From Candidatus Falkowbacteria bacterium (lineage in GTDB: Bacteria; Patescibacteriota; Patescibacteriia; JAACEG01): a stretch of 64,000 nt of DNA. The notes beneath the pieces were generated by a model. That model ran no database searches and was not told the origin of the DNA. It worked only from the letters and a program-made list of their open reading frames with translations. Shown here piece after piece: positions 165 through 61,257 of this stretch. Made by a program: the position numbers and the translations under genes. Location of the stretch: the NCBI GenBank assembly GCA_018651725.1, contig JABIDK010000001.1, forward strand, positions 748 through 64,747. The letters run 5' to 3'. Position 1 is the first letter of the stretch; every line of letters begins with the position of its first letter.

Positions 165-340
165 TGTCTATTAGACTTATTACATAATAAGCTATTACTG
201 CAATCCCCATATTTTGGTAAATTTCTTTTAAAAATTTTTGGCCTATACGCAGGTATAAGCAAAAAATTTTTAAAAGAAATTTCCTCAAAATCTGGAAATT
301 TCGCTACATAGCTTATTATGCAACAAGTCTATTAAAAAAA
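165..340. repeat. Nested inverted-repeat hairpin element, long form; a short form is at 60943-61018
   Basis: Arms ttattagacttattacataataagctattactgc and gctacatagcttattatgcaacaagtctattaa are reverse complements. The inner sequence carries a second palindrome (aaatttcttttaaaaattttt / aaaaatttttaaaagaaattt). A related copy lies at 60943-61018. Confidence 0.6.
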
Positions 341-11606: not shown

Positions 11607-14600
11607 TTATTTATTTTCCTTATCTTTGGAAGAACCTTTAATATCTCTTCCTTCTTTTAAAAGCTCAACATCAAGCCCAAGTCCTTTGAACTCTCTGACT
11701 AAAACATTAAAAGACTCAGGGATATTTACTTTTTGTATTTCTTCACCTTTAATTATTGACTCGTAAGCTTTGCTTCTACCGGGAACATCGTCTGACTTAA
11801 TGGTAAGCATCTCCTGTAAGATATGAGCAGCGCCATAGCCTTCAAGCGCCCAAACTTCCATTTCACCAAATCTTTGTCCACCAAACTGAGCTTTACCACC
11901 AAGAGGTTGTTGAGTAATAAGCGAGTAAGGACCAATTGAACGTTGGTGAATTTTATCCTCAACCATATGGTTAAGCTTTAACATATATTTATAGCCAACA
12001 ACTGTTTTGTCATCAAATCTATCGCCTGTTCGGCCGTCATATAAAGTTAATTTTCCATCTTCCGGGTAACCGTATTTTTTAAGTTCAGCTCTAATAATAT
12101 GTTCCGGGATACCATCAAGCGGAGGAGTAGCTACTTTATAATCACCTGCCTGAGCCGCCAAACCTAAATGAGTTTCAAGTAATTGACCCAAGTTCATACG
12201 AGAGATTACTCCCAAAGGCGATAGAATAACATCGATTGGAGTACCGTCTTCAAGGCAAGGCATATCTGCAACCGGTACAATTTTGGAAACAACTCCTTTG
12301 TTACCATGACGACCGGACATTTTATCTCCCACCTGAATTTTTCTTAGGTTTGCCACTGAAATTTGGATTGTTTTAATAACACCGGGCTGTAATTTATCTC
12401 CGTCTGCGCGAGAGAAAATTTGAATAGCAACAATTTTACCGTGTTCACCGTGTTCTAAAACAAGCGAAGTGTCCCGAACGTCTTTGGCTTTTTCTCCAAA
12501 AATTGCTCTAAGCAGTTTTTCTTCGCTGGATAGCTCGGTTTCTCCTTTTGGTGTAATTTTACCAACTAAAATATCTCCGGACTTAACTTCAGCCCCGATT
12601 CTTACAACTCCTTCATCGTCTAGGTTTTTTAATTTTTCTTCACCAATATTTGGAATGTCTCTGGTAACAATTTCAGGACCAAGTTTTGTGTCGCGAACAT
12701 CGATTGAATAGTTATTAATATGAATTGAGCTGTAGAAATCATCTTTTACCAATCTCTCTGAAATAATAATCGCGTCTTCATAGTTATAGCCTTCCCAAGA
12801 CATAAACGCTACCAAAATATTTCTACCAAGAGCAAGTTCTTTACCTTCAATTGACTGACCGTCTGATAGTGCTTGACCTTTTTTAACGTTTTCTTCAATC
12901 TCAACTATTGGATGCTGATTAATACAAGTGGATTGGTTTGATCGTACAAATTTTGATAGATCGTAAACATCCAAATCTCCTTTGCTGTTTAGTATCTCAA
13001 TTTTATCGGCAGAAACCGCTGACACTTTTCCGCTTTCTTTTGTTCTGACAACATGACCGGAGTCAAGAGCGGCTTTTTCTTCCACACCTGTTCCAACAAA
13101 AGGAGCTTGTGGGCTTACTAACGGAACAGCTTGGCGTTGCATGTTAGTTCCCATTAAAGCTCTAACCGCATCGTCGTGCTCTAAAAAAGGGATTAAAGAT
13201 GTTGCAATAGAAACAATCTGTTTTGGGGAAACATCCATAAAATCAACCTTGGAAACATCGTCAATATCCGGTACCCCGTATTTTCTAACCTCTACTTTGT
13301 CTTCTAAAAAATAACCATCTTTGTCAATTTCAGAGGTCGCGGTTGTAATAATCATTTTTTCTTCTTCAAATGCGTCTAGGAAAAGTATTTCATCTGTTAC
13401 TATTGGTTTTATGGCAATTGTTTTTAAATCTTTTATTTTGCTTAATTCTTTTGCTTTAGCTGAAGTAATTTTTTCATTCTTTTTTAAAACAACTTTAGCT
13501 CCTGATTTTATATCTTCTCTAGCGATTTTATCAACGGTTATCTTCGGATCATTTTTTATATCGTGTAAAACTTTTCTATAAGGAGTCTCTAAAAATCCAT
13601 ATTCATTAATATGAGCATAACTTGCCAAATGACCAACCAATCCAATGTTCGGTCCCTCCGGAGTGGCGATTGGACAAATTTTCCCATAGTGAGTTCTATG
13701 TACGTCACGAACTTCAAAACCGGCTCTTTCTCTGGTTAATCCGCCCGGCCCCATGGCAGACAGTCTTCTTTTATGTTCAAGCTCTGCTAAAGGATTTGTT
13801 TGATCCATAAACTGACAAAGCTGAGAAGACATAAAAAACTCTTTAACAGCAGAGATGAGCGGTCTGGAGTTAATTAAACGAGCCGGAGTCATATTTGTTT
13901 CATCAAGCGTACTCATTCGGTCTCTGATAATTCTTTCCATTCTAACAACTCCGATTCTAAATCTGTTTTGAACCAACTCACCGATAGTCCTGATTCTTCT
14001 GTTTCCAAGATGATCGATGTCGTCGGCTTCTTTTTGAGATATGTTTAAACTGATAATTTCTTCTACAATGTCAACTAAATTTTGGGGATCAAAAATTCTG
14101 TTTTCTTTAGTAATCGGTAGATCTTTATTAAAGCGTCTGTTTAATTTGTATCGTCCTACTTTTCCAAAATCATATCTATCAAAATTAAAAAACATGGCGT
14201 TAATTAACGATCTGACATTATCGATACCCGCTAAATCCCCCGGCCTGATTCTTTTATAGACCTCCATTAGACCTTCATCCTCACTTGTGGTAATATCTTT
14301 TTTCAAAGTGGCTTCAATATAATTAAAGTCCGGATGAGTTTCTACTTTTTGAAAAAGCTCTTTTATTTCTTCGTCGGTGCTATATCCAAAAGCTCGCAGT
14401 AAGGAGGTAACAGCGATTTTTCTTTTCCGGTCAATTTTAACCCAAATAACATTGTTAATATCTGTTTCAATCTCAAGCCAGGCTCCTCTGTTTGGAATAA
14501 TTTTTGCTCCGTAATAGTTTTTTCCTTTTACATTTTCTGAAGAGAAGAATACTCCTGCACTTCTAATAAGTTGAGAAACAATTGCTCTCTCAATACCATT

Positions 14601-18908: not shown

Positions 18909-18980
18909 AAGAAAACTTTTTTAAATATTTTATTTTTTTACATAATATCATAAAAAAACCGTTTAAACAACAAAAAATAA

Positions 18981-19020
18981 AAGTTGTAAAAAAATGCGAC
19001 CGCACATTTTTACAACTTTT
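18981..19020. repeat. 40-bp near-palindromic element, copy 1, at the 3' side of the PaaX-like gene
   Basis: aaagttgtaaaaaaatgcgaccgcacatttttacaacttt. It is the exact reverse complement of the element at 19612-19651. Confidence 0.7.
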
Positions 19021-19067: not shown

Positions 19068-19595
19068 TTACAAATCAAATCTTTTCTTAAAAAGTAAGTC
19101 ATTGCTTATTTTGTCAACTACCATCAAAACTACAAATTTGGCAATTTCCAGGCGCTTGATAATATTTTGGATTTCTTCAAAATTGTCATATGGGCTTATC
19201 CAGACGCTGTTTTGGCATTTTTCAAACCCAAGGTCTATTAAAATATTTCGCAAATAATTACGCAACTCTTTTTTCTTTTCTGGAATATCAAAAATAACAA
19301 TTCTCCATTTCTTATCCCATTTTTCATTTTCTTTTTTTATTTTACCTTTGGCTATTAATAATTTTTTCAAGCCTTTTAAAGTAAACCCTTTTTTATTAAT
19401 ATATTTAAACCTTTTCAAGTGATAAATTTGAGCATAAATTCTTTTCTGCTCTTTTTTGTCTTCAATTCTTCTCCTTTTTTCGTTATAATAATCATCATAC
19501 CAAGCCCCACTTCTATTGATATTAACCTTAAGGATTCGTTCTAAATTATCAGCTAAATCCGTAATTAGTTCTTCAAGGTCAATTTTAACAGGCAT
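19068..19595 (-). CDS. PaaX-family / Cas2-like-fold putative transcriptional regulator
   Basis: C-terminal WRIVIFDIPEKKKELRNYLRNILIDLGFEKCQNSVWISPYD resembles the PaaX C-terminal (Cas2-like) domain. 175 aa. Confidence 0.5.
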   Translation of the reverse strand: MPVKIDLEELITDLADNLERILKVNINRSGAWYDDYYNEKRRRIEDKKEQKRIYAQIYHLKRFKYINKKGFTLKGLKKLLIAKGKIKKENEKWDKKWRIVIFDIPEKKKELRNYLRNILIDLGFEKCQNSVWISPYDNFEEIQNIIKRLEIAKFVVLMVVDKISNDLLFKKRFDL

Positions 19596-19611: not shown

Positions 19612-19651
19612 AAAGTTGTAAAAATGTGCGGTCGCATTTTTTTACAACTTT
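19612..19651. repeat. 40-bp near-palindromic element, copy 2, in the divergent promoter region between the PaaX-like gene and tsaC
   Basis: aaagttgtaaaaatgtgcggtcgcatttttttacaacttt, which equals the reverse complement of 18981-19020. Confidence 0.7.
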
Positions 19652-23070: not shown

Positions 23071-23133
23071 TTAAAGAACTTTTACTTCCTCTAAGTCTAC
23101 TTCACCGATTGAAATAAACTTGGAAAAAGTGGG
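23071..23133. repeat. Direct repeat R1 (about 63 bp), an upstream/leader element
   Basis: ttaaagaacttttacttcctctaagtctacttcaccgattgaaataaacttggaaaaagtggg. Nearly identical to 24747-24805 apart from a 6-bp indel. Confidence 0.7.
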
Positions 23134-23722
23134 AATTTTTGAACTTATGGTATTCCCAAACCATATTGTAAACGCTAACGTGGTTTACTTGTAATAATTT
23201 TGACTTGAAATTATCACACCGTCGCTGTTTTCGCATAAAGCGGATTAGAATCGGTTTACTCATTCCCGATTCAGCGATGCTTGTTTATTTATATAGCGTA
23301 GCTGTACGGATTTCTCCTGCAAGCTCTGCGCTTGACGACAAGAAGTCTAGCCTCTTTTTCTCTTTCGAGAATAAGGATAATCTTCATCCTGAGAATAAAA
23401 ATCATCCCTGTCGTCGTTCTCTATCAGATTGCTATGTCTGCAATCTTTGCAGACATGCTTGTAGTGTATCTTTGTACGATACATGCAATCCCGAAGAGGG
23501 AATTGGCAATGGTCCTTTTTCCAAGTCATAACCACCTCCAAAGAGTTAACGCACTCTAAAATATCTCTTTATTCCCAAAATTTTAACCCGCGTCACCAAG
23601 TTTTATATTTGGTATTCAGAAACATCCTTTCGCGCCGACGTTTCATCAAGGTACAGCCGGAACCCGTTTTTGTTGAAGCGGGTGAAAACAAAAATTGCTT
23701 CCACCCGTAAATAACCTAGCTC

Positions 23723-24746: not shown

Positions 24747-24805
24747 TTTAAAGAACTTCCTCTAAGTCTACTTCACCGATTGAAATAAACTTGGAAAAAG
24801 TGGGG
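24747..24805. repeat. Direct repeat R2 (about 59 bp), second copy of the upstream/leader element
   Basis: ttaaagaacttcctctaagtctacttcaccgattgaaataaacttggaaaaagtgggg. Confidence 0.7.
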
Positions 24806-24968
24806 AATGTTTATTGAGCCTCCCCCTTAGTTAAATAGTTTTTGTAATGAACATCTAATCTTTATTATTCTTACAATATCACAAAGCAAATAAACTGTCA
24901 GTAAAAATGTAAAAAATGTAAATTTTTATTAAAATTTATTTTATTACCTCGTTTTTTTAGCTTAAATA

Positions 24969-45758: not shown

Positions 45759-45871
45759 TTATTAGATCTGTTACGATAGCGGGTCTAACTCTTGATTTTT
45801 TATAAGAAGTATGTATAATAGACAATAAGTCTAATAAAAACAAAAAAGAAACCAACAAAAGGAGGGGTAAA

Positions 45872-47035: not shown

Positions 47036-47127
47036 TTAATCAAAAAAATATAACAAGGTGAATTCCGAAGGAAGAGAAAGTGGTCTGGGCCAAAACACGA
47101 CAACATAACGATGTGATGTAATGATAA

Positions 47128-47233: not shown

Positions 47234-48733
47234 CTATTTAACCCAGTGTTTTTCTTTTATTTCTTTGTCTTCTTCCTCTTTTTTTTCTTTTATTTTGCCT
47301 TTAGCTTGTTTTCTTAGATCCTTTAAGTCCATTTTATCAAGTTCTTTGGCTCGTTTTTTCAAGTATGTTTTAGTATTATTTTTGGGATTTTCTATTACTT
47401 CGGCTAATAAACAATCTAAAATTGCTCCAAATTTGGGACTAGGAGACATTTTCAGGTCTTTTATCAATGTTTCACCACTCACCTTAAGACTTTTTACGGA
47501 AATTGGATCTTTGCTGACTTTATCGATTAAATACTCTAAATGGCGTAATTTGTAGGGTTTTGCCTTTGGGACACCAGACCCAAGCCTGTCTGAAATGCGT
47601 AAATCCATTAAATCTTTCATATTCTCTTTACCTACTTTTTTTACCAGTCTCCTGATTCCGGCATCTGAAACATCACCAACATTATAGTAAAACATGTGGT
47701 TTTTAATCAAATGAGTTACTTTTTCAACGTCTTGGCTGGAAAAAGCCATTCTTTTCATTATTTTTTTAGCTATTTTAGCGCCAACGATGTCGTGGTTGTA
47801 GAAAGTAGCATCAATTCCTTGTCCGCGTTTGGTTTGCGGTTTGGCAATATCATGAAATAAAGCTGCCAATCTAACGCGGTAGTCCTTGCTTGGACAGTGT
47901 TTTAGTGACATTATTAAATGTTTAAAGATAGTATAGGTATGATGCTTGTTTTGATTCATTCCTACACCAAGCTCTAATTCTGGGATAATATATTGCAAAA
48001 GCTTAGCGTTTCGTAGCAAAAGTATACCTTCTTCAGGAGTTTCTGACTGTAAAATCTTAATAAACTCATCGTGAATTCGTTCGTTGGCTATTTTTTTGAT
48101 TAATTTAGCGTTATTTCTGATAGCTTTTAAGGTTTTCGGCTCTATTTTCCAACCTAAAACAACCGCAAATCTAATCGCACGCATCATTCTAAGCGCATCT
48201 TCATTAAAACGCTCGTTCGGATCACCAACCGCCCTAATTAACTTGTTTTTAAGGTCTTTTTGACCGTTAAACAGATCTGTAACTTGATAGTTGTTATCTG
48301 TTGTTTGGTTTTTTGTGTTTTTTGATTGCGCCCGATGTTTCACGTGAAACATTGCCAGTGCATTTACTGTAAAATCTCGTCTTTCTAGGTCTTCTTTTAG
48401 GGTTTTAGCAAATTTTACGCTATCTGGTCGTCTTTTGTCGCTATATTTTGACTCGATTCTGTAGGTTGTTATCTCTACTATATCTATTGTTTCGTCATTA
48501 TTGTTTTTGATTTTTATGCCTACAGTCCCAAATTTATTCTCATAAACAGTTTCAGGGAATATTTTTTGTATTTCTTTTGGTCTGGCGTTTGTAGTGATAT
48601 CCCAATCCTTTGGTTTATTATTTATCAATAAATCACGAACGCAACCACCAACAAGATAAGCCTCAAAATTGGCCTTTTCTAGTGTTTTTAGTGTATTTTG
48701 TACGTATTTTGGGATTTTCATAGTCATAGTCAT
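47234..48733 (-). CDS. cca: CCA-adding tRNA nucleotidyltransferase with a C-terminal HD domain
   Basis: GGCVRDLLINNKPKDWDITT and RRDFTVNALA head motifs, HD region ALFHDIAKP. Contains an in-frame parS-derived insertion (MFHVKH...). Confidence 0.85.
   Translation of the reverse strand: MTMTMKIPKYVQNTLKTLEKANFEAYLVGGCVRDLLINNKPKDWDITTNARPKEIQKIFPETVYENKFGTVGIKIKNNNDETIDIVEITTYRIESKYSDKRRPDSVKFAKTLKEDLERRDFTVNALAMFHVKHRAQSKNTKNQTTDNNYQVTDLFNGQKDLKNKLIRAVGDPNERFNEDALRMMRAIRFAVVLGWKIEPKTLKAIRNNAKLIKKIANERIHDEFIKILQSETPEEGILLLRNAKLLQYIIPELELGVGMNQNKHHTYTIFKHLIMSLKHCPSKDYRVRLAALFHDIAKPQTKRGQGIDATFYNHDIVGAKIAKKIMKRMAFSSQDVEKVTHLIKNHMFYYNVGDVSDAGIRRLVKKVGKENMKDLMDLRISDRLGSGVPKAKPYKLRHLEYLIDKVSKDPISVKSLKVSGETLIKDLKMSPSPKFGAILDCLLAEVIENPKNNTKTYLKKRAKELDKMDLKDLRKQAKGKIKEKKEEEDKEIKEKHWVK
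48336..48351. repeat. parS-type palindrome, copy 5, in frame inside the cca coding sequence
   Basis: gatgtttcacgtgaaacatt, translated as MFHVKH within Cca. Confidence 0.75.
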
Positions 48734-49274: not shown

Positions 49275-50240
49275 TTATATTTTGATGTTTTTGGCTAACT
49301 GAATGTATTTTTGAGCTGTTTGAGGTAGTTTGTGACCGAGTATTTGCTGGATTTCGCTTACTTTAGTGCCTTTTTTTGCTAAATTAACTGCGAATGTATG
49401 TCGTAGCGAATGACAAGTAGCTTGTTTTTTGATTTTTGTTTTTTTAAAGACTTGTAGAAAGGCTTTTTGAATGGCTCTTTCGGTTAATTTTTGATTTTTT
49501 TGTCCTTTAAATAAATAATTATCTGATAATGTTTCACCCGCCACCAGAACGGTGTCGGGCAGGCGTGAAACATTATCGTCATATGATTGTTCTTGCCCGC
49601 CTGCAACGCTGTAGCAACTGCGGGCAGGTGTTCCAATATATTTTTTTAGCTTTTCAACAATATTTTTTGGTAAACCTAATGTTCTTTTTTGGTGTTTTCC
49701 GTTATTAGTTATTTTAACTTGATTTTTAAAAAAGTCCAGTGTTTTTACCTTAATATTAACTATTTCTGATATTCTAAGGCCTGTTAAGTACATTAATTCA
49801 AAAATTAGCCGATGTTTTGGGTTTTGGGTTGATTTTAGTATTTTGTTTACCTCTTTATCTGTTAAAATAACTGGTTGTTTTTTATCAAGCTTGGCCCGAC
49901 CGATTTTTCCATGCGGAGCAAAAAATTTACGATGTAAAATGCTCTCAAAATAGAACTTTAAAGCACTATGGGTGGTATTTAAGGTAGAACGTGACTTTTT
50001 TTCTTTAACTAGTTTCTCTAAGTAGCTAATTATATCTTTACTTTGAATATTTTTAGGGCTTTTACTCGCAAAACTAACTATTTCTGAGATATAATAAAGG
50101 TAGCTTTTAATGGTTTTACTATCAAAATTCAACTCAACCATTGTTTTCTTTAGCTTATGAAGTGGATTTTTACTGGGGTATTTGTAGGGAATCATGTTAA
50201 TATTTAAACAAGCGAAACGACGATGTTTCACGTGAAACAT
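49275..50240 (-). CDS. Tyrosine recombinase / integrase (XerC/XerD-like); start codon uncertain
   Basis: C-terminal catalytic region HSLRHTFAVNLAKKGTKVSEIQQILGH...YIQ. The annotated N-terminus MFHVKH is encoded by a parS copy, so the real start is probably an internal Met. The ORF contains in-frame GC-rich palindromic insertions. Confidence 0.75.
   Translation of the reverse strand: MFHVKHRRFACLNINMIPYKYPSKNPLHKLKKTMVELNFDSKTIKSYLYYISEIVSFASKSPKNIQSKDIISYLEKLVKEKKSRSTLNTTHSALKFYFESILHRKFFAPHGKIGRAKLDKKQPVILTDKEVNKILKSTQNPKHRLIFELMYLTGLRISEIVNIKVKTLDFFKNQVKITNNGKHQKRTLGLPKNIVEKLKKYIGTPARSCYSVAGGQEQSYDDNVSRLPDTVLVAGETLSDNYLFKGQKNQKLTERAIQKAFLQVFKKTKIKKQATCHSLRHTFAVNLAKKGTKVSEIQQILGHKLPQTAQKYIQLAKNIKI
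49530..49572. repeat. Split parS: the two half-sites are separated by a 27-bp GC-rich insert, inside the integrase ORF
   Basis: tgtttcac | ccgccaccagaacggtgtcgggcaggc | gtgaaaca. Confidence 0.65.
49596..49630. repeat. GC-rich 35-bp element, copy A, in frame in the integrase ORF
   Basis: cccgcctgcaacgctgtagcaactgcgggcaggtg. A near-identical copy lies at 60860-60893. Confidence 0.65.
50224..50239. repeat. parS-type palindrome, copy 9
   Basis: gatgtttcacgtgaaacatt. Confidence 0.75.
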
Positions 50241-52498: not shown

Positions 52499-52694
52499 TA
52501 TTTCCTCCTATTTTAATATTTACACATCTTAATAATTATTTTATATATTTGAACATATAAAGTCAATACATAATTTTGAAAGAAATATTAAACTTTAAAA
52601 TGTTGACAAAATTCGCGACCGCGAATTATATCAACATTTTAGGGGTTGTGATAAGTGGAGTGGTATCGTTTTTTTTAAAAGTATAATTAAAATT

Positions 52695-53254: not shown

Positions 53255-53869
53255 ATGAAGTATATTGATTTTTACCAACATTTTAAAGATTATCCAATTA
53301 TACAATTGGCTGATGTAAAGAATATTGAGAGTGATTTTGACCATAGACGTCTTTATGAATGGCAAAAAAAGGGATATTTGAAAAGAGTGACTAATAATTT
53401 TTATATTTTTGCTGATAAAAAGTTGTCTGATTTTGAAATGAATTTTGTAGCTAATAAATTGTATCAACCATCTTATTTAAGTCTTGAGTATGCTTTAGGG
53501 TTTTATAGTTTAATTCCAGAAATTGTTTTTTTGCATACCTGTATTACCACTAAGAAGACGAAGCAAATAACTTCTAGCATTGGTAATTTTTCTTATCGTA
53601 GCATAAAAAAAGAATTGTTTTTTGGTTATAAGTTAGTCCAAAAGGATAATATGTTTTTAAAAATTGCTGATCCGGAAAAAGCTTTGTTAGATTTTTTATA
53701 TTTGAGGAGTGATATAAAAAATAAAAATGATGTTTATGAGCTACGAATTAATAAGGATGTTTTTAAGGAGATAATTAATCATGAGAAGATAAATAATTAT
53801 TTAAAAAAGTTTAATTCTAAGCAATTAATTAAAAAAATAAAAATAGTAAATAATTATGTTAAGTCTTAA
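53255..53869 (+). CDS. AbiEi-family antitoxin (type IV TA), putative
   Basis: N-terminal wHTH-like region and the PSYLSLEYALGFYSLIPE motif typical of AbiEi. Overlaps the downstream toxin gene by 14 nt. Confidence 0.6.
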   Translation: MKYIDFYQHFKDYPIIQLADVKNIESDFDHRRLYEWQKKGYLKRVTNNFYIFADKKLSDFEMNFVANKLYQPSYLSLEYALGFYSLIPEIVFLHTCITTKKTKQITSSIGNFSYRSIKKELFFGYKLVQKDNMFLKIADPEKALLDFLYLRSDIKNKNDVYELRINKDVFKEIINHEKINNYLKKFNSKQLIKKIKIVNNYVKS

Positions 53870-54626
53870 TGAAATAAAAAAATATTATCCTGATTTGCAG
53901 GGGTTTGAAAGGGGAATTTTGCGAGAACATCTCCAGTATAAAATTTTGGATATCATTTATAGCAGTAAATTTGGTAGAAAGTTGTCATTTTTAGGTGGAA
54001 CAGCTATGAGAATTTGTTATGACGGAAATAGGTTTTCAGAAGATTTGGATTTTGATAATTTTGGGTTAAGTAAAAAGGAATTTGAAGAAATGTCTGAATT
54101 AATTCGAAAGGAGTTAAGTCGTGAGGGTTATAACGTAGAGTATCGAAACGTTTACAAGGGCGCTTATCATACATATCTTAAATTTTCTGATATTTTGTTT
54201 GAAAATAAACTAACAGCAATGAAGAGTGAGAAAATTATGATTCAGATAGATACTGTGCAAGAGAGTGTTGACTATACGCCGAATATTTTAGTGTTGGCAA
54301 AGTTTGATGTTTTTCGAAACATTAAAGTGACTCCGGTTGATATAATTTTATCTAAAAAAATTGGGGCTGTGTTCGGTAGAAAAAGAGTTAAGGGAAGAGA
54401 CTTTTATGATATTGTTTTTTTAAAAGGGTTTACGGATTTTAATTATGACTACTTAAAAGAAAAGTTTGATATTAAAAACAAACAGGATTTAAAAAAGAGG
54501 TTGCTGGAAAAAATTGCTGATCTTGATTTAAAAAAGTTAGCGCGAGATGTGGAGCCGTTTTTGATTAATCAAGACGAAAAAGCAAGAGTTACAGATTTTA
54601 GGGAGTATATTGAACAAAAACTGTGA
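53856..54626 (+). CDS. AbiEii/AbiGii-family nucleotidyltransferase toxin (DUF1814)
   Basis: LSFLGGTAMRICYDGNRFSEDLDFD is the hallmark GGTAL...RFSEDLD motif of AbiEii. Confidence 0.8.
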   Translation: MLSLNEIKKYYPDLQGFERGILREHLQYKILDIIYSSKFGRKLSFLGGTAMRICYDGNRFSEDLDFDNFGLSKKEFEEMSELIRKELSREGYNVEYRNVYKGAYHTYLKFSDILFENKLTAMKSEKIMIQIDTVQESVDYTPNILVLAKFDVFRNIKVTPVDIILSKKIGAVFGRKRVKGRDFYDIVFLKGFTDFNYDYLKEKFDIKNKQDLKKRLLEKIADLDLKKLARDVEPFLINQDEKARVTDFREYIEQKL

Positions 54627-56694: not shown

Positions 56695-57282
56695 TTATAT
56701 TGCACTGTCTAAAAGCTCATCTAATTTTTTGTCTAATTCGTCGATGCTGGCTTTTTGGCCCAGGCCACTCTCTCTGGCTTCGCCATTCACCTTGTCTTTA
56801 GGTTCTTTTTTCTTGGTTTCTTCAGGTTTGTCGTCTGTTGTTTCAGCTTTCTCTGGTTTAGTTTCAACTTTTTCTTCTTTATCTTTCTTTGCTGTTTTTT
56901 CAGTTTTAGGTTTCTCTTCCTTCTTCTCTACTGTTTTTTCAATAACTTGTTTTTCAACTTTCACCTTGTCTTGATTGTCCGGTGAAAAAGGTTTAGATCT
57001 TTTTACTTCTTTTACGATTTGAAATCGAATAACATCGGTGTTGATGTTTAGTTTTTGAGTAATTTTCTCCGGTGTATCAGGTTCACCAGCAAAAATCACT
57101 AAGGTGTAATACCCGTAGCGAAAGTGTTTAATTTGGTAGGCTAATTTTTTCTTGCCCCAATCTTGAGTACTTTGGATGTCCCCACCATTTTCTTTAACAG
57201 TAGAAATAACCTTTTGGTTGATTTCCTTTACTTCATCGTCCGAATATTTGTTCGGAACAATGAAAAGCAGTTCATAGTTCAT
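56695..57282 (-). CDS. rpsF: 30S ribosomal protein S6 with a long K/E-rich C-terminal extension
   Basis: MNYELLFIVPNKYSDDEVKEINQKVISTVKENGG...YYTLVIFAG; the core is about 100 aa and the low-complexity tail about 90 aa. Confidence 0.9.
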   Translation of the reverse strand: MNYELLFIVPNKYSDDEVKEINQKVISTVKENGGDIQSTQDWGKKKLAYQIKHFRYGYYTLVIFAGEPDTPEKITQKLNINTDVIRFQIVKEVKRSKPFSPDNQDKVKVEKQVIEKTVEKKEEKPKTEKTAKKDKEEKVETKPEKAETTDDKPEETKKKEPKDKVNGEARESGLGQKASIDELDKKLDELLDSAI

Positions 57283-60942: not shown

Positions 60943-61018
60943 TTTGTTATTAGACTTGTTACATAATTAACTATTACTGCAATCCTCACATAGTTAATTG
61001 TACAACAAGTCTAATATA
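60943..61018. repeat. Short form of the hairpin element seen at 165-340, with compensatory arm changes
   Basis: ttattagacttgttacataattaactattactgcaatcctcacatagttaattgtacaacaagtctaata. The arms still pair with each other, but they differ from copy 1 by paired substitutions (aagc/gctt becomes taac/gtta). Confidence 0.6.
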
Positions 61019-61041: not shown

Positions 61042-61257
61042 TTATAGATAAGCGGCTGCTGAAACAGCTGCTCCGCCAACAATGGCTGAACAAACAGCGG
61101 CTACGGAAAAGGCAACGGTTTTAATACCTTGGTTTTCTATTCTAATAGATTCCATTTCAGTATCTAAAGCATTGTTTTCTCCGCCACAACTACCGCAGCT
61201 TTCTTCGTCGTCAAGATTAATTTTTTGATAACTATTCATAGTTACACCCCCTTTCAA
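61042..61257 (-). CDS. Small protein with a CGSCGG motif and an Ala/Gly-rich hydrophobic C-terminus (membrane peptide or bacteriocin-like)
   Basis: C-terminal GIKTVAFSVAAVCSAIVGGAAVSAAAYL. Confidence 0.4.
   Translation of the reverse strand: MKGGVTMNSYQKINLDDEESCGSCGGENNALDTEMESIRIENQGIKTVAFSVAAVCSAIVGGAAVSAAAYL

Follow-up and report, generated by a model that had tools for sequence, protein, structure and literature searches.

Transposable elements of the miniature inverted-repeat kind (MITEs) are typically found as stable hairpins in intergenic, co-transcribed positions, and they often occur as length variants (PMC3184786, PMC3049150). Nezha of Anabaena and Nostoc, with an ISNpu3-like element as its proposed partner, is an example of the bacterial MITEs mobilized by an insertion sequence (IS) with matching ends (PMC3184786, PMC3049150). 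The ERIC, Correia, and RUP elements of enterobacteria, Neisseria, and pneumococcus, respectively, are imperfect palindromes of ~70–180 bp that lie in intergenic, co-transcribed DNA, come in a long and a short variety, and can affect how stable an mRNA is or how it is processed (PMC3184786, PMC3049150). Here, we analyze a 64,000-nt stretch of a Candidatus Falkowbacteria genome (assembly GCA_018651725.1, contig JABIDK010000001.1, positions 748 to 64,747; hereafter, the window) that carries two related hairpins, a 158-bp long form at 173–330 (copy 1) and a 61-bp short form at 60952–61012 (copy 2). The host belongs to the Patescibacteria (candidate phyla radiation, CPR), a group with very small genomes in which mobile DNA is generally considered scarce. 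An earlier inspection of the letters without database searches (the sequence-only reading) had suggested that these hairpins are either a small structured RNA or a MITE. Our analysis indicates that they probably represent a new MITE family in Candidatus Falkowbacteria, with ends matching those of IS5-type ISs. On the best-supported interpretation, the MITE is not autonomous and either derives from an IS5-like DDE_Tnp_4 IS or hitch-hikes on one.

Copy 1 is contained in a 176-nt nested palindrome (164–339), in agreement with the hairpin and inner palindrome that the sequence-only reading had placed at 165–340. The outer arms of this palindrome (164–195 and 308–339) are 32 nt long, 84% complementary, and separated by 112 nt. 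They enclose an inner palindromic module (202–301, + strand), the arms of which are 37 nt long (212–248 and 253–289) and 86% complementary. The element proper runs from AGAC to GTCT on the + strand. In its left outer arm (173–195, +), the first 16–17 nt are a terminal inverted repeat of the IS type, AGACTTATTACATAAT, after which comes an extension specific to the subfamily, AAGCTAT, and its right outer arm (308–330, +) carries the reverse complement, AGACTTGTTGCATAATAAGCTAT, of which the first 16 nt match the IS terminal repeat. Copy 2, which likewise runs from AGAC to GTCT on the + strand (arms 60948–60974 and 60990–61016), lacks the inner segment and retains the arms and the loop-proximal motif TACTGCAATCC (60948–61016), as had also been noticed. 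This motif (+ strand; 196–206 in copy 1 and 60975–60985 in copy 2) is shared with L044, an 82-bp relative, and is diverged in L063, a relative from another lineage. The two window copies have a stretch of 44 nt in common at 89% identity (169–212 versus 60948–60991). Both are non-coding and intergenic, overlapped only by chance open reading frames (ORFs) of ≤49 aa. The predicted folding energies are −58.9 (+) and −77.3 (−) kcal/mol for copy 1 (z = −11.3 and −12.1 versus shuffled sequences) and −24.4 (+) and −25.0 (−) kcal/mol for copy 2 (z = −5.9 and −5.2). Across copy 1, copy 2, and L044, between 22 and 25 of the 27 base pairs of the arms are Watson–Crick pairs.

The key observation concerns the ends of these hairpins. 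AGACTTGTTGCATAAT, the sequence of the outermost 16–17 nt of the arms, is also the terminal inverted repeat of ISs that encode a transposase with HTH_Tnp_4 and DDE_Tnp_4 domains. A metagenome scan with TAWTAGACTTRTTRYAYAAT returned at least 117 loci, many of them probably chance matches and ~25 of them clearly structured. Three ISs have AGACTTGTTGCATAAT ends: an element of ~1.07 kb encoding a 302-aa HTH_Tnp_4 + DDE_Tnp_4 transposase (L122, 993–2064), one encoding a 305-aa transposase (L069, 55–1606), and one with a frameshifted transposase gene (L149, 55–2988). The same type of repeat also ends short non-coding elements with unrelated interiors in other metagenomes. These include 11 copies, at different loci, of one ~100-bp family in metagenome Ga0190359 and further short elements at L070, L096, L110, L115, L142, L143, and L152. 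The L122-type transposase scores 81 bits against the NCBIfam model transpos_IS5_4, below its 140-bit cutoff; at E ≤ 1e-30, it has 3,786 homologues, the majority of which lie on contigs of ~1–1.6 kb. Its nearest annotated relatives (~49% identity) are on Nostoc punctiforme and Leptolyngbya plasmids. These elements, found by protein similarity alone, have the ends AGACTTGTCGGGAAATAAG / AGAGTTGTTGGGAAATAG and AAT on both flanks, and their ends (AGACTTGTCGGG / AGAGTTGTTGGG) are related to the arm ends in the window. The cyanobacterial ends were found independently of the DNA pattern, and we conclude that the arm ends in the window are terminal inverted repeats of this IS5-like clade.

Some of the metagenomic elements are nested in one another. 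In L122 (168–2860), an IS66-family transposase gene is split into two ORFs by the 1.07-kb IS5-like element, and in L149 the nesting is reversed, with an IS1182-like element inside the IS5-like one. In L143 (~2078–2112), a pair of elements that carry this terminal repeat lie directly against each other and have one TAATA junction in common (…GCAACAAGTCTAATAGACTTGTTG…), which suggests tandem or nested insertion at a preferred target made by an element end.

When species-representative genomes were scanned with the arm pattern, most of the hits were single and due to chance. Three relatives proved real, namely L044, which is an intermediate form in opposite orientation in a metagenome-assembled genome (MAG) from Saanich Inlet, at the same locus as L053; L023, which is a minimal hairpin of 36 nt from a Patescibacteria MAG of marine origin; and L025, a solo arm in a Parcubacteria MAG, with L028 being doubtful. 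Among viral contigs, matches to the arm pattern were limited to single arms that occur by chance within genes; for the inner-module pattern there was one match, also by chance (L179), and for the arm of L093 (a locus discussed below) there was none. A literature search with the terminal-repeat string matched only unrelated primers.

The DNA flanking the elements is consistent with transposition. Flanks were compared for 24 elements (3 ISs, 18 other short elements, and 3 of the window subfamily), and the 3 bp immediately outside AGAC...GTCT, always AAT or ATT, are identical on both sides in 21 of them, as expected of a target-site duplication; the right flank was unconstrained by the search pattern. 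The 3-bp length of the duplication follows from the Leptolyngbya copy, which reads A/AAT/AGAG...CTCT/AAT/G. Copy 1 is flanked by ATT on the left (170–172) and right (331–333), a putative target-site duplication. Copy 2 has non-matching flanks, ATT (60949–60951) and AAT (61013–61015), as does L044 (AAT and ATT). Putative target-site duplications, which the sequence-only reading had proposed to look for, are seen at copy 1 and in the wider family and not at copy 2 or L044.

Comparison with related genomes also points to insertion. The orthologous locus, consisting of genes for a class A penicillin-binding protein (PBP) and an RNHCP-domain protein followed by lgt, was recovered from three related species, in which RNHCP is 64–74% identical. 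The PBP–RNHCP spacer is 285 nt in the window and 98–126 nt in the three related species, where copy 1 is absent. When 173–333 is removed from the window, the remaining sequence aligns continuously with that of L171 over the junction in a pairwise alignment (...TTGTCTATT/AAAAAAACC... versus ...TTGTAAAAT/AAAAAAACC...). On either side of this junction are a putative sigma-70-like promoter with an extended TG (TTGATT-17-TATAGT; 123–151, +), identified by a consensus scan, and a small hairpin, ACCTTCTTTTTAGAAGGT (340–357, +), in which the RNHCP gene, a zinc-ribbon gene downstream of copy 1 (368–694, +), probably has its ribosome-binding site. Both the promoter region and the hairpin are conserved in the L171 alignment, and since the hairpin is kept at the empty sites, it belongs to the host locus rather than to the element. 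The absence of copy 1 from orthologous sites, together with the continuous junction, indicates the insertion of a whole 158-bp unit accompanied by a 3-bp duplication. With IS5-like ends, matching flanks at copy 1, and empty sites in three species, the MITE alternative raised in the sequence-only reading has held up.

These data allow us to propose how the elements arose. The outermost 16–17 bp would be recognized by an IS5-like DDE transposase supplied in trans, and insertion would occur at T/AWT/A sites with duplication of the 3-bp AWT. Copy 1, with its ATT repeats, would have been inserted as one unit in an ancestor of this Candidatus Falkowbacteria species, where it came to separate the promoter of the RNHCP gene from the hairpin with its ribosome-binding site. 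The shorter versions, including the 82-bp L044, the 61-bp copy 2, and smaller stubs, are most simply viewed as internal-deletion derivatives of the long form. The arm sequences, followed with a 24-nt search pattern, are identical at both loci in every same-species contig read from several samples, and there is no transposase in ~76 kb of this genome, so the copies are probably fixed and immobile here.

Nezha-type MITEs offer one close comparison. The window elements resemble them in being small, non-coding, and AT-rich, in having IS-matching terminal inverted repeats, direct-repeat flanks at copy 1, filled and empty sites, and stable hairpins, and in that the nearest annotated relatives of the partner transposase, from Nostoc punctiforme and Leptolyngbya plasmids, make the same AAT duplication. 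They differ in that the terminal repeat diverges beyond about the first 10 nt (…TTGCATAAT in the window), the host is a member of the Patescibacteria, the copy number is very low, and the arms in the window reach 27 bp, such that the whole short form is one hairpin. The full elements are like IS5 and PIF-Harbinger (DDE_Tnp_4) elements in encoding HTH_Tnp_4 + DDE_Tnp_4, in their size of ~1.07–1.55 kb, and in their 3-bp duplication. Harbinger and IS5 subgroups duplicate TWA or TNA, whereas the duplication here is AWT (AAT or ATT); moreover, the window elements encode nothing, and the NCBIfam score of the transposase is below the cutoff. An autonomous IS5-like element was rejected, since tblastn with the L122 and L069 transposases gave no good match in the window. 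With ERIC, Correia, and RUP, the window copies have in common that they are imperfect palindromes in intergenic, predicted co-transcribed positions with long and short versions, but they have no sequence relationship to these families, a different duplication, and a different host. In REP/BIME elements (RAYT, Y1) and the end hairpins of IS200/IS605, structure rather than sequence is recognized, so that compensatory changes are expected; by contrast, the window ends are conserved as sequence, bracket DDE rather than Y1 genes, make a 3-bp duplication, and have no GTAG-type motif. A REP/BIME assignment was therefore rejected, given ends that start with AGAC, the 3-bp duplication, and DDE partners; the genome was not searched for a RAYT gene. 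The hairpins are probably a known kind of element, in a new family and an unusual host group.

Several observations weigh against assignment as a MITE. A target-site duplication is present in one of the three subfamily copies, the flanks of copy 2 and L044 being mismatched. No empty site was found for copy 2; the nearest YgjP homologues are ~56% identical and not syntenic, synteny being lost in the nearest relatives. Searches by tblastn with the L122 and L069 transposases found no cognate gene, with nothing in the window better than E = 1.8, and neither a transposase homologue nor further copies were found in 12 kb of extra flanking DNA from the same genome. The ISs with these ends were found in metagenome contigs and in no Patescibacteria genome. 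Copies are also few, with merely two clear ones and two doubtful stubs in the ~76 kb formed by the window and its flanks. Possible decayed remnants on the + strand, TATTAGATCTGTTAC...GGGTCTAAC (45761–45792) and TAATAGACAATAAGTCTAATA (45816–45838), lie in a locus whose folding does not differ significantly from that of shuffled sequences (z = −0.9), making it at best a doubtful remnant. Finally, the inner palindrome poses two difficulties. It recurs at L093 with unrelated outer arms, such that the long form could be a nested insertion, and the pattern of its differences from L093 fits a constrained structure, which selfish-DNA status alone does not explain.

The sequence-only reading had pointed to a paired change between the copies, in which AAGC in the left arm and GCTT in the right arm become TAAC and GTTA, and had taken it as the signature of a selected RNA or cruciform structure. 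The paired change is real. When 27 positions of the outer stem are compared among copy 1, copy 2, and L044, two Watson–Crick types are found at positions 11 (G-C and A-T), 21 (A-T and T-A), and 23 (G-C and A-T); the paired change corresponds to positions 21 and 23, and position 11 is added by L044. In simulations of independent substitution, three or more compensated positions are obtained with P < 0.001, even with a strong bias toward G/C sites. The arms therefore co-evolve and are not independent. The same comparison shows six one-sided, uncompensated cells at positions 11, 14, 15, 17, and 23, all of which are transitions; the sequence-only reading made no mention of them. Paired evolution is stronger in the inner palindrome. 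Among 37 pairs compared between the window and L093, five have changed on both sides, none on one side, and none is broken. Sliding the partner strand by 1–3 columns as a control lowers pairing from 100% to ≤60% and the double-sided changes from five to at most one. Three asymmetries of the inner stem (T/G, GT/AGG, and GGCC/GCT) are the same in both sequences. This last finding disfavors, for the inner module, an origin in which each copy was born symmetric by a separate inverted duplication of one half.

Because the whole element is palindromic, transcription at any site would yield a long hairpin, and the arms evolve together. The cause may be selection for fold-back of either the DNA or the RNA, or else templated correction at replication. 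When a quasi-palindrome is replicated, intra-strand template switching copies a mutation from one arm to the other; this is a published, non-selective source of hairpins with seemingly compensatory, often multi-base changes (PMC8794818). We regard it as a distinct possibility, short of a probable one, that the paired changes are such a mutational by-product. The five changed columns of the inner stem cluster (31, 34, 39–40, and 52) and may reflect about three events; those in the nearly adjacent columns 31, 34, and 39–40 are as expected of a few multi-base events, or else of mirrored insertions and deletions in A/T runs. The outer stem, too, mixes corrected and uncorrected sites. However, the window and L093 have kept three old asymmetries while every newer difference is symmetric, and unselective correction should have erased the former, although this comparison involves only two or three sequences. 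The evolution of the arms as pairs was thus correctly seen, but the step from covariation to selection is insecure.

A related question is whether the long form is a composite, with the inner palindrome being an independent module nested in the loop of a short terminal-repeat hairpin and the short form being ancestral. The inner module (202–301) is 86% identical to L093 12475–12573, where it is bracketed by unrelated, perfectly complementary arms of 20 bp (GGGACTATTATCAAACACCA) with ATTAA direct repeats on both sides; the outer arms of copy 1 and L093 are no more similar than shuffled sequence. At L063, an IS-type arm is joined to a diverged left half of the inner module, with no right arm. 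The occurrence of the inner module with unrelated arms in L093 and its joining to an IS-type arm in L063 indicate that the element is modular. The L063 arrangement also shows that the combination of terminal-repeat arm and inner module is old, since it occurs in another lineage, and this argues against a composite, as does the insertion of copy 1 as a whole unit relative to the empty sites. In addition, L044 keeps ~12 nt of each end of the inner segment (CCCCATATTTTG / GGAAATTTCG) with the middle gone, which fits deletion; copy 2 lacks both CCCCATATTTTG and GGAAATTTCG. Short direct repeats are seen at the deletion boundaries of the shorter forms when copy 1, copy 2, and L044 are read side by side, and no target duplication is seen at the borders of the inner module. 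A composite origin is therefore rather unlikely, and the size series from 158 to 82 to 61 bp and on to the stubs (L023 and L093 8780–8801) would fit internal deletions.

The L093 copy has a setting of its own. On this contig (Ga0257124_1000522), the interval from the stop codon of an ftsI-like PBP gene to the murF start is taken up by a 159-bp palindromic element (12445–12603), and the ftsI-like stop codon lies in the left ATTAA repeat.

The symmetric differences and conserved asymmetries of the inner palindrome raise the prospect of function. The ~100-nt inner palindrome might be a functionally constrained module that is moved around Patescibacteria genomes by at least two sets of terminal repeats and acts in host transcripts or as a DNA fold-back for mobilization; we consider this unlikely, and we likewise see a small but real chance that the fold as such has a function, be it in the DNA or in the RNA. 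Such a module may serve, for example, as an mRNA-stabilizing or RNase-processing stem-loop, and the outer stem may perhaps be constrained too.

Less plausible still is the RNA alternative of the sequence-only reading, by which the hairpin would be a selected structured RNA (a cis-acting leader, a 3′-untranslated region (UTR) stem-loop, or a small RNA) or a MITE exapted for such a role. The very stable folds are compatible with it, as are the compensatory changes beyond chance at three outer positions and at all five inner differences, with three conserved bulges or asymmetries. The positions of the copies also suit an RNA. Copy 1 would be within the 5′ leader of the RNHCP gene on the + strand if the putative promoter at 123–151 is used. 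Copy 2 lies 25 nt beyond the stop codon of a 65-aa ORF (61042–61239, −) that is preceded by a predicted, perfect consensus promoter (TTGACA-17-TGnTATAAT; 61306–61278, −); with a predicted terminator-like site farther on (60839–60811, −), copy 2 would be in the 3′ UTR of this ORF on the − strand. The L093 element, for its part, lies between the same-strand ftsI-like and murF genes, and the orientation of the inner module to predicted transcription is the same in the window and L093.

Other findings argue against this RNA. Copies 1 and 2 are opposite in orientation with respect to their predicted transcripts. When the one-sided cells of the outer stem are read as RNA, they give G-U wobbles on the + strand in two cases and on the − strand in four, and on the predicted transcribed strand A-C mismatches account for three of the five one-sided cells in the window copies. 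What unrelated elements conserve in the outer stem is sequence, the IS terminal repeat, and not structure. Two substitutions were seen in the arms of the Ga0190359 family (L073 and L087), both of them uncompensated, and an asymmetry between AGAC on the left and AGAG on the right is kept in the Ga0190359 elements and in three of the five full-length ISs (L069, Nostoc, and Leptolyngbya), which indicates that the outermost repeat is kept as a protein-recognition sequence rather than as a helix. Neither copy matches an Rfam family at the gathering score, and at E ≤ 1 only sub-cutoff generic hairpin (miRNA-precursor) models are returned; a tRNA/tmRNA search of the hairpin copies was also negative. 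The absence of a U-tract after the hairpin on either strand indicates that it is not an intrinsic terminator. For the arms themselves, a role as promoter or terminator was likewise rejected, because no convincing −35/−10 spacing is seen inside an arm on reading and no U-tract follows.

That the copies are recombination or protein-binding sites, such as attL/attR of an integrated element, dif-like Xer sites, or integron attC sites, is very improbable: they are directly oriented 60.8 kb apart, with a tyrosine recombinase gene at 49275–50240, but the interval holds core genes (rpoB/rpoC, recA, ftsK, and ribosomal protein genes), which rules out the ends of an island, the copies are merely 89% identical over 44 nt, the attC core motifs RYYYAAC and GTTRRRY are absent on reading both copies, and the same ends bracket DDE transposase genes elsewhere.

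The window is a chromosomal segment with a G+C content of ~33% that carries core genes such as rpoC, lgt, and ychF; dnaA and dnaN lie ~9.7 kb upstream of its start. Contigs with identical proteins include MAG GCA_018656705.1, and homologues of the RNHCP gene are found in Patescibacteria. The product of the 65-aa ORF next to copy 2 is acidic and Cys-rich in its N-terminal half and hydrophobic and Ala/Val-rich at its C-terminus, and a Pfam search with it gave no match; it may be a small membrane peptide or bacteriocin-like.

Other repeats are also present. Between 46487 and 50321, at least eight copies of a perfect 16-bp palindrome, TGTTTCACGTGAAACA, lie in intergenic DNA around the genes for a CCA-adding enzyme (47234–48733, −) and the tyrosine recombinase (49275–50240, −); from its appearance, this palindrome may be an operator or regulon motif in several copies. 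Two 40-nt sequences with perfect complementarity to each other (18980–19019 and 19612–19651), both of them hairpins in their own right (AAAGTTGTAAAAA..GCGACCGC..TTTTTACAACTTT), lie on either side of a 175-aa gene that has a PaaX_M / Cas2-like domain (19068–19595, −), and a third copy with 70% identity is at 52599–52638. These repeats are a second hairpin family, unrelated to the MITE copies. An intergenic 43-nt segment (47053–47095) has an inverted match of 86% at 56753–56795 in rpsF, the gene for ribosomal protein S6 (56695–57282, −), and could be a gene fragment or a regulatory mimic. A 57-nt direct repeat with 95% identity occurs at 23084–23140 and 24755–24811, 1,671 bp apart. Lastly, an AbiEii-family toxin gene (53856–54626), as called by a precomputed Pfam annotation of a same-species contig, is preceded by an overlapping 204-aa ORF, such that 53255–54626 is likely an AbiE-type toxin–antitoxin pair.

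A MITE family whose ends connect it with a very large clade of IS5-like transposases, most of them unannotated, gives CPR genomes a further mobile-element marker. It also carries a warning for annotation, in that a long intergenic hairpin of a CPR genome, even one supported by covariation, can be the fossil of a transposon rather than an RNA gene. The symmetric evolution of the inner palindrome, in turn, provides a compact natural test case for distinguishing selection on a fold from mutation by template switching.

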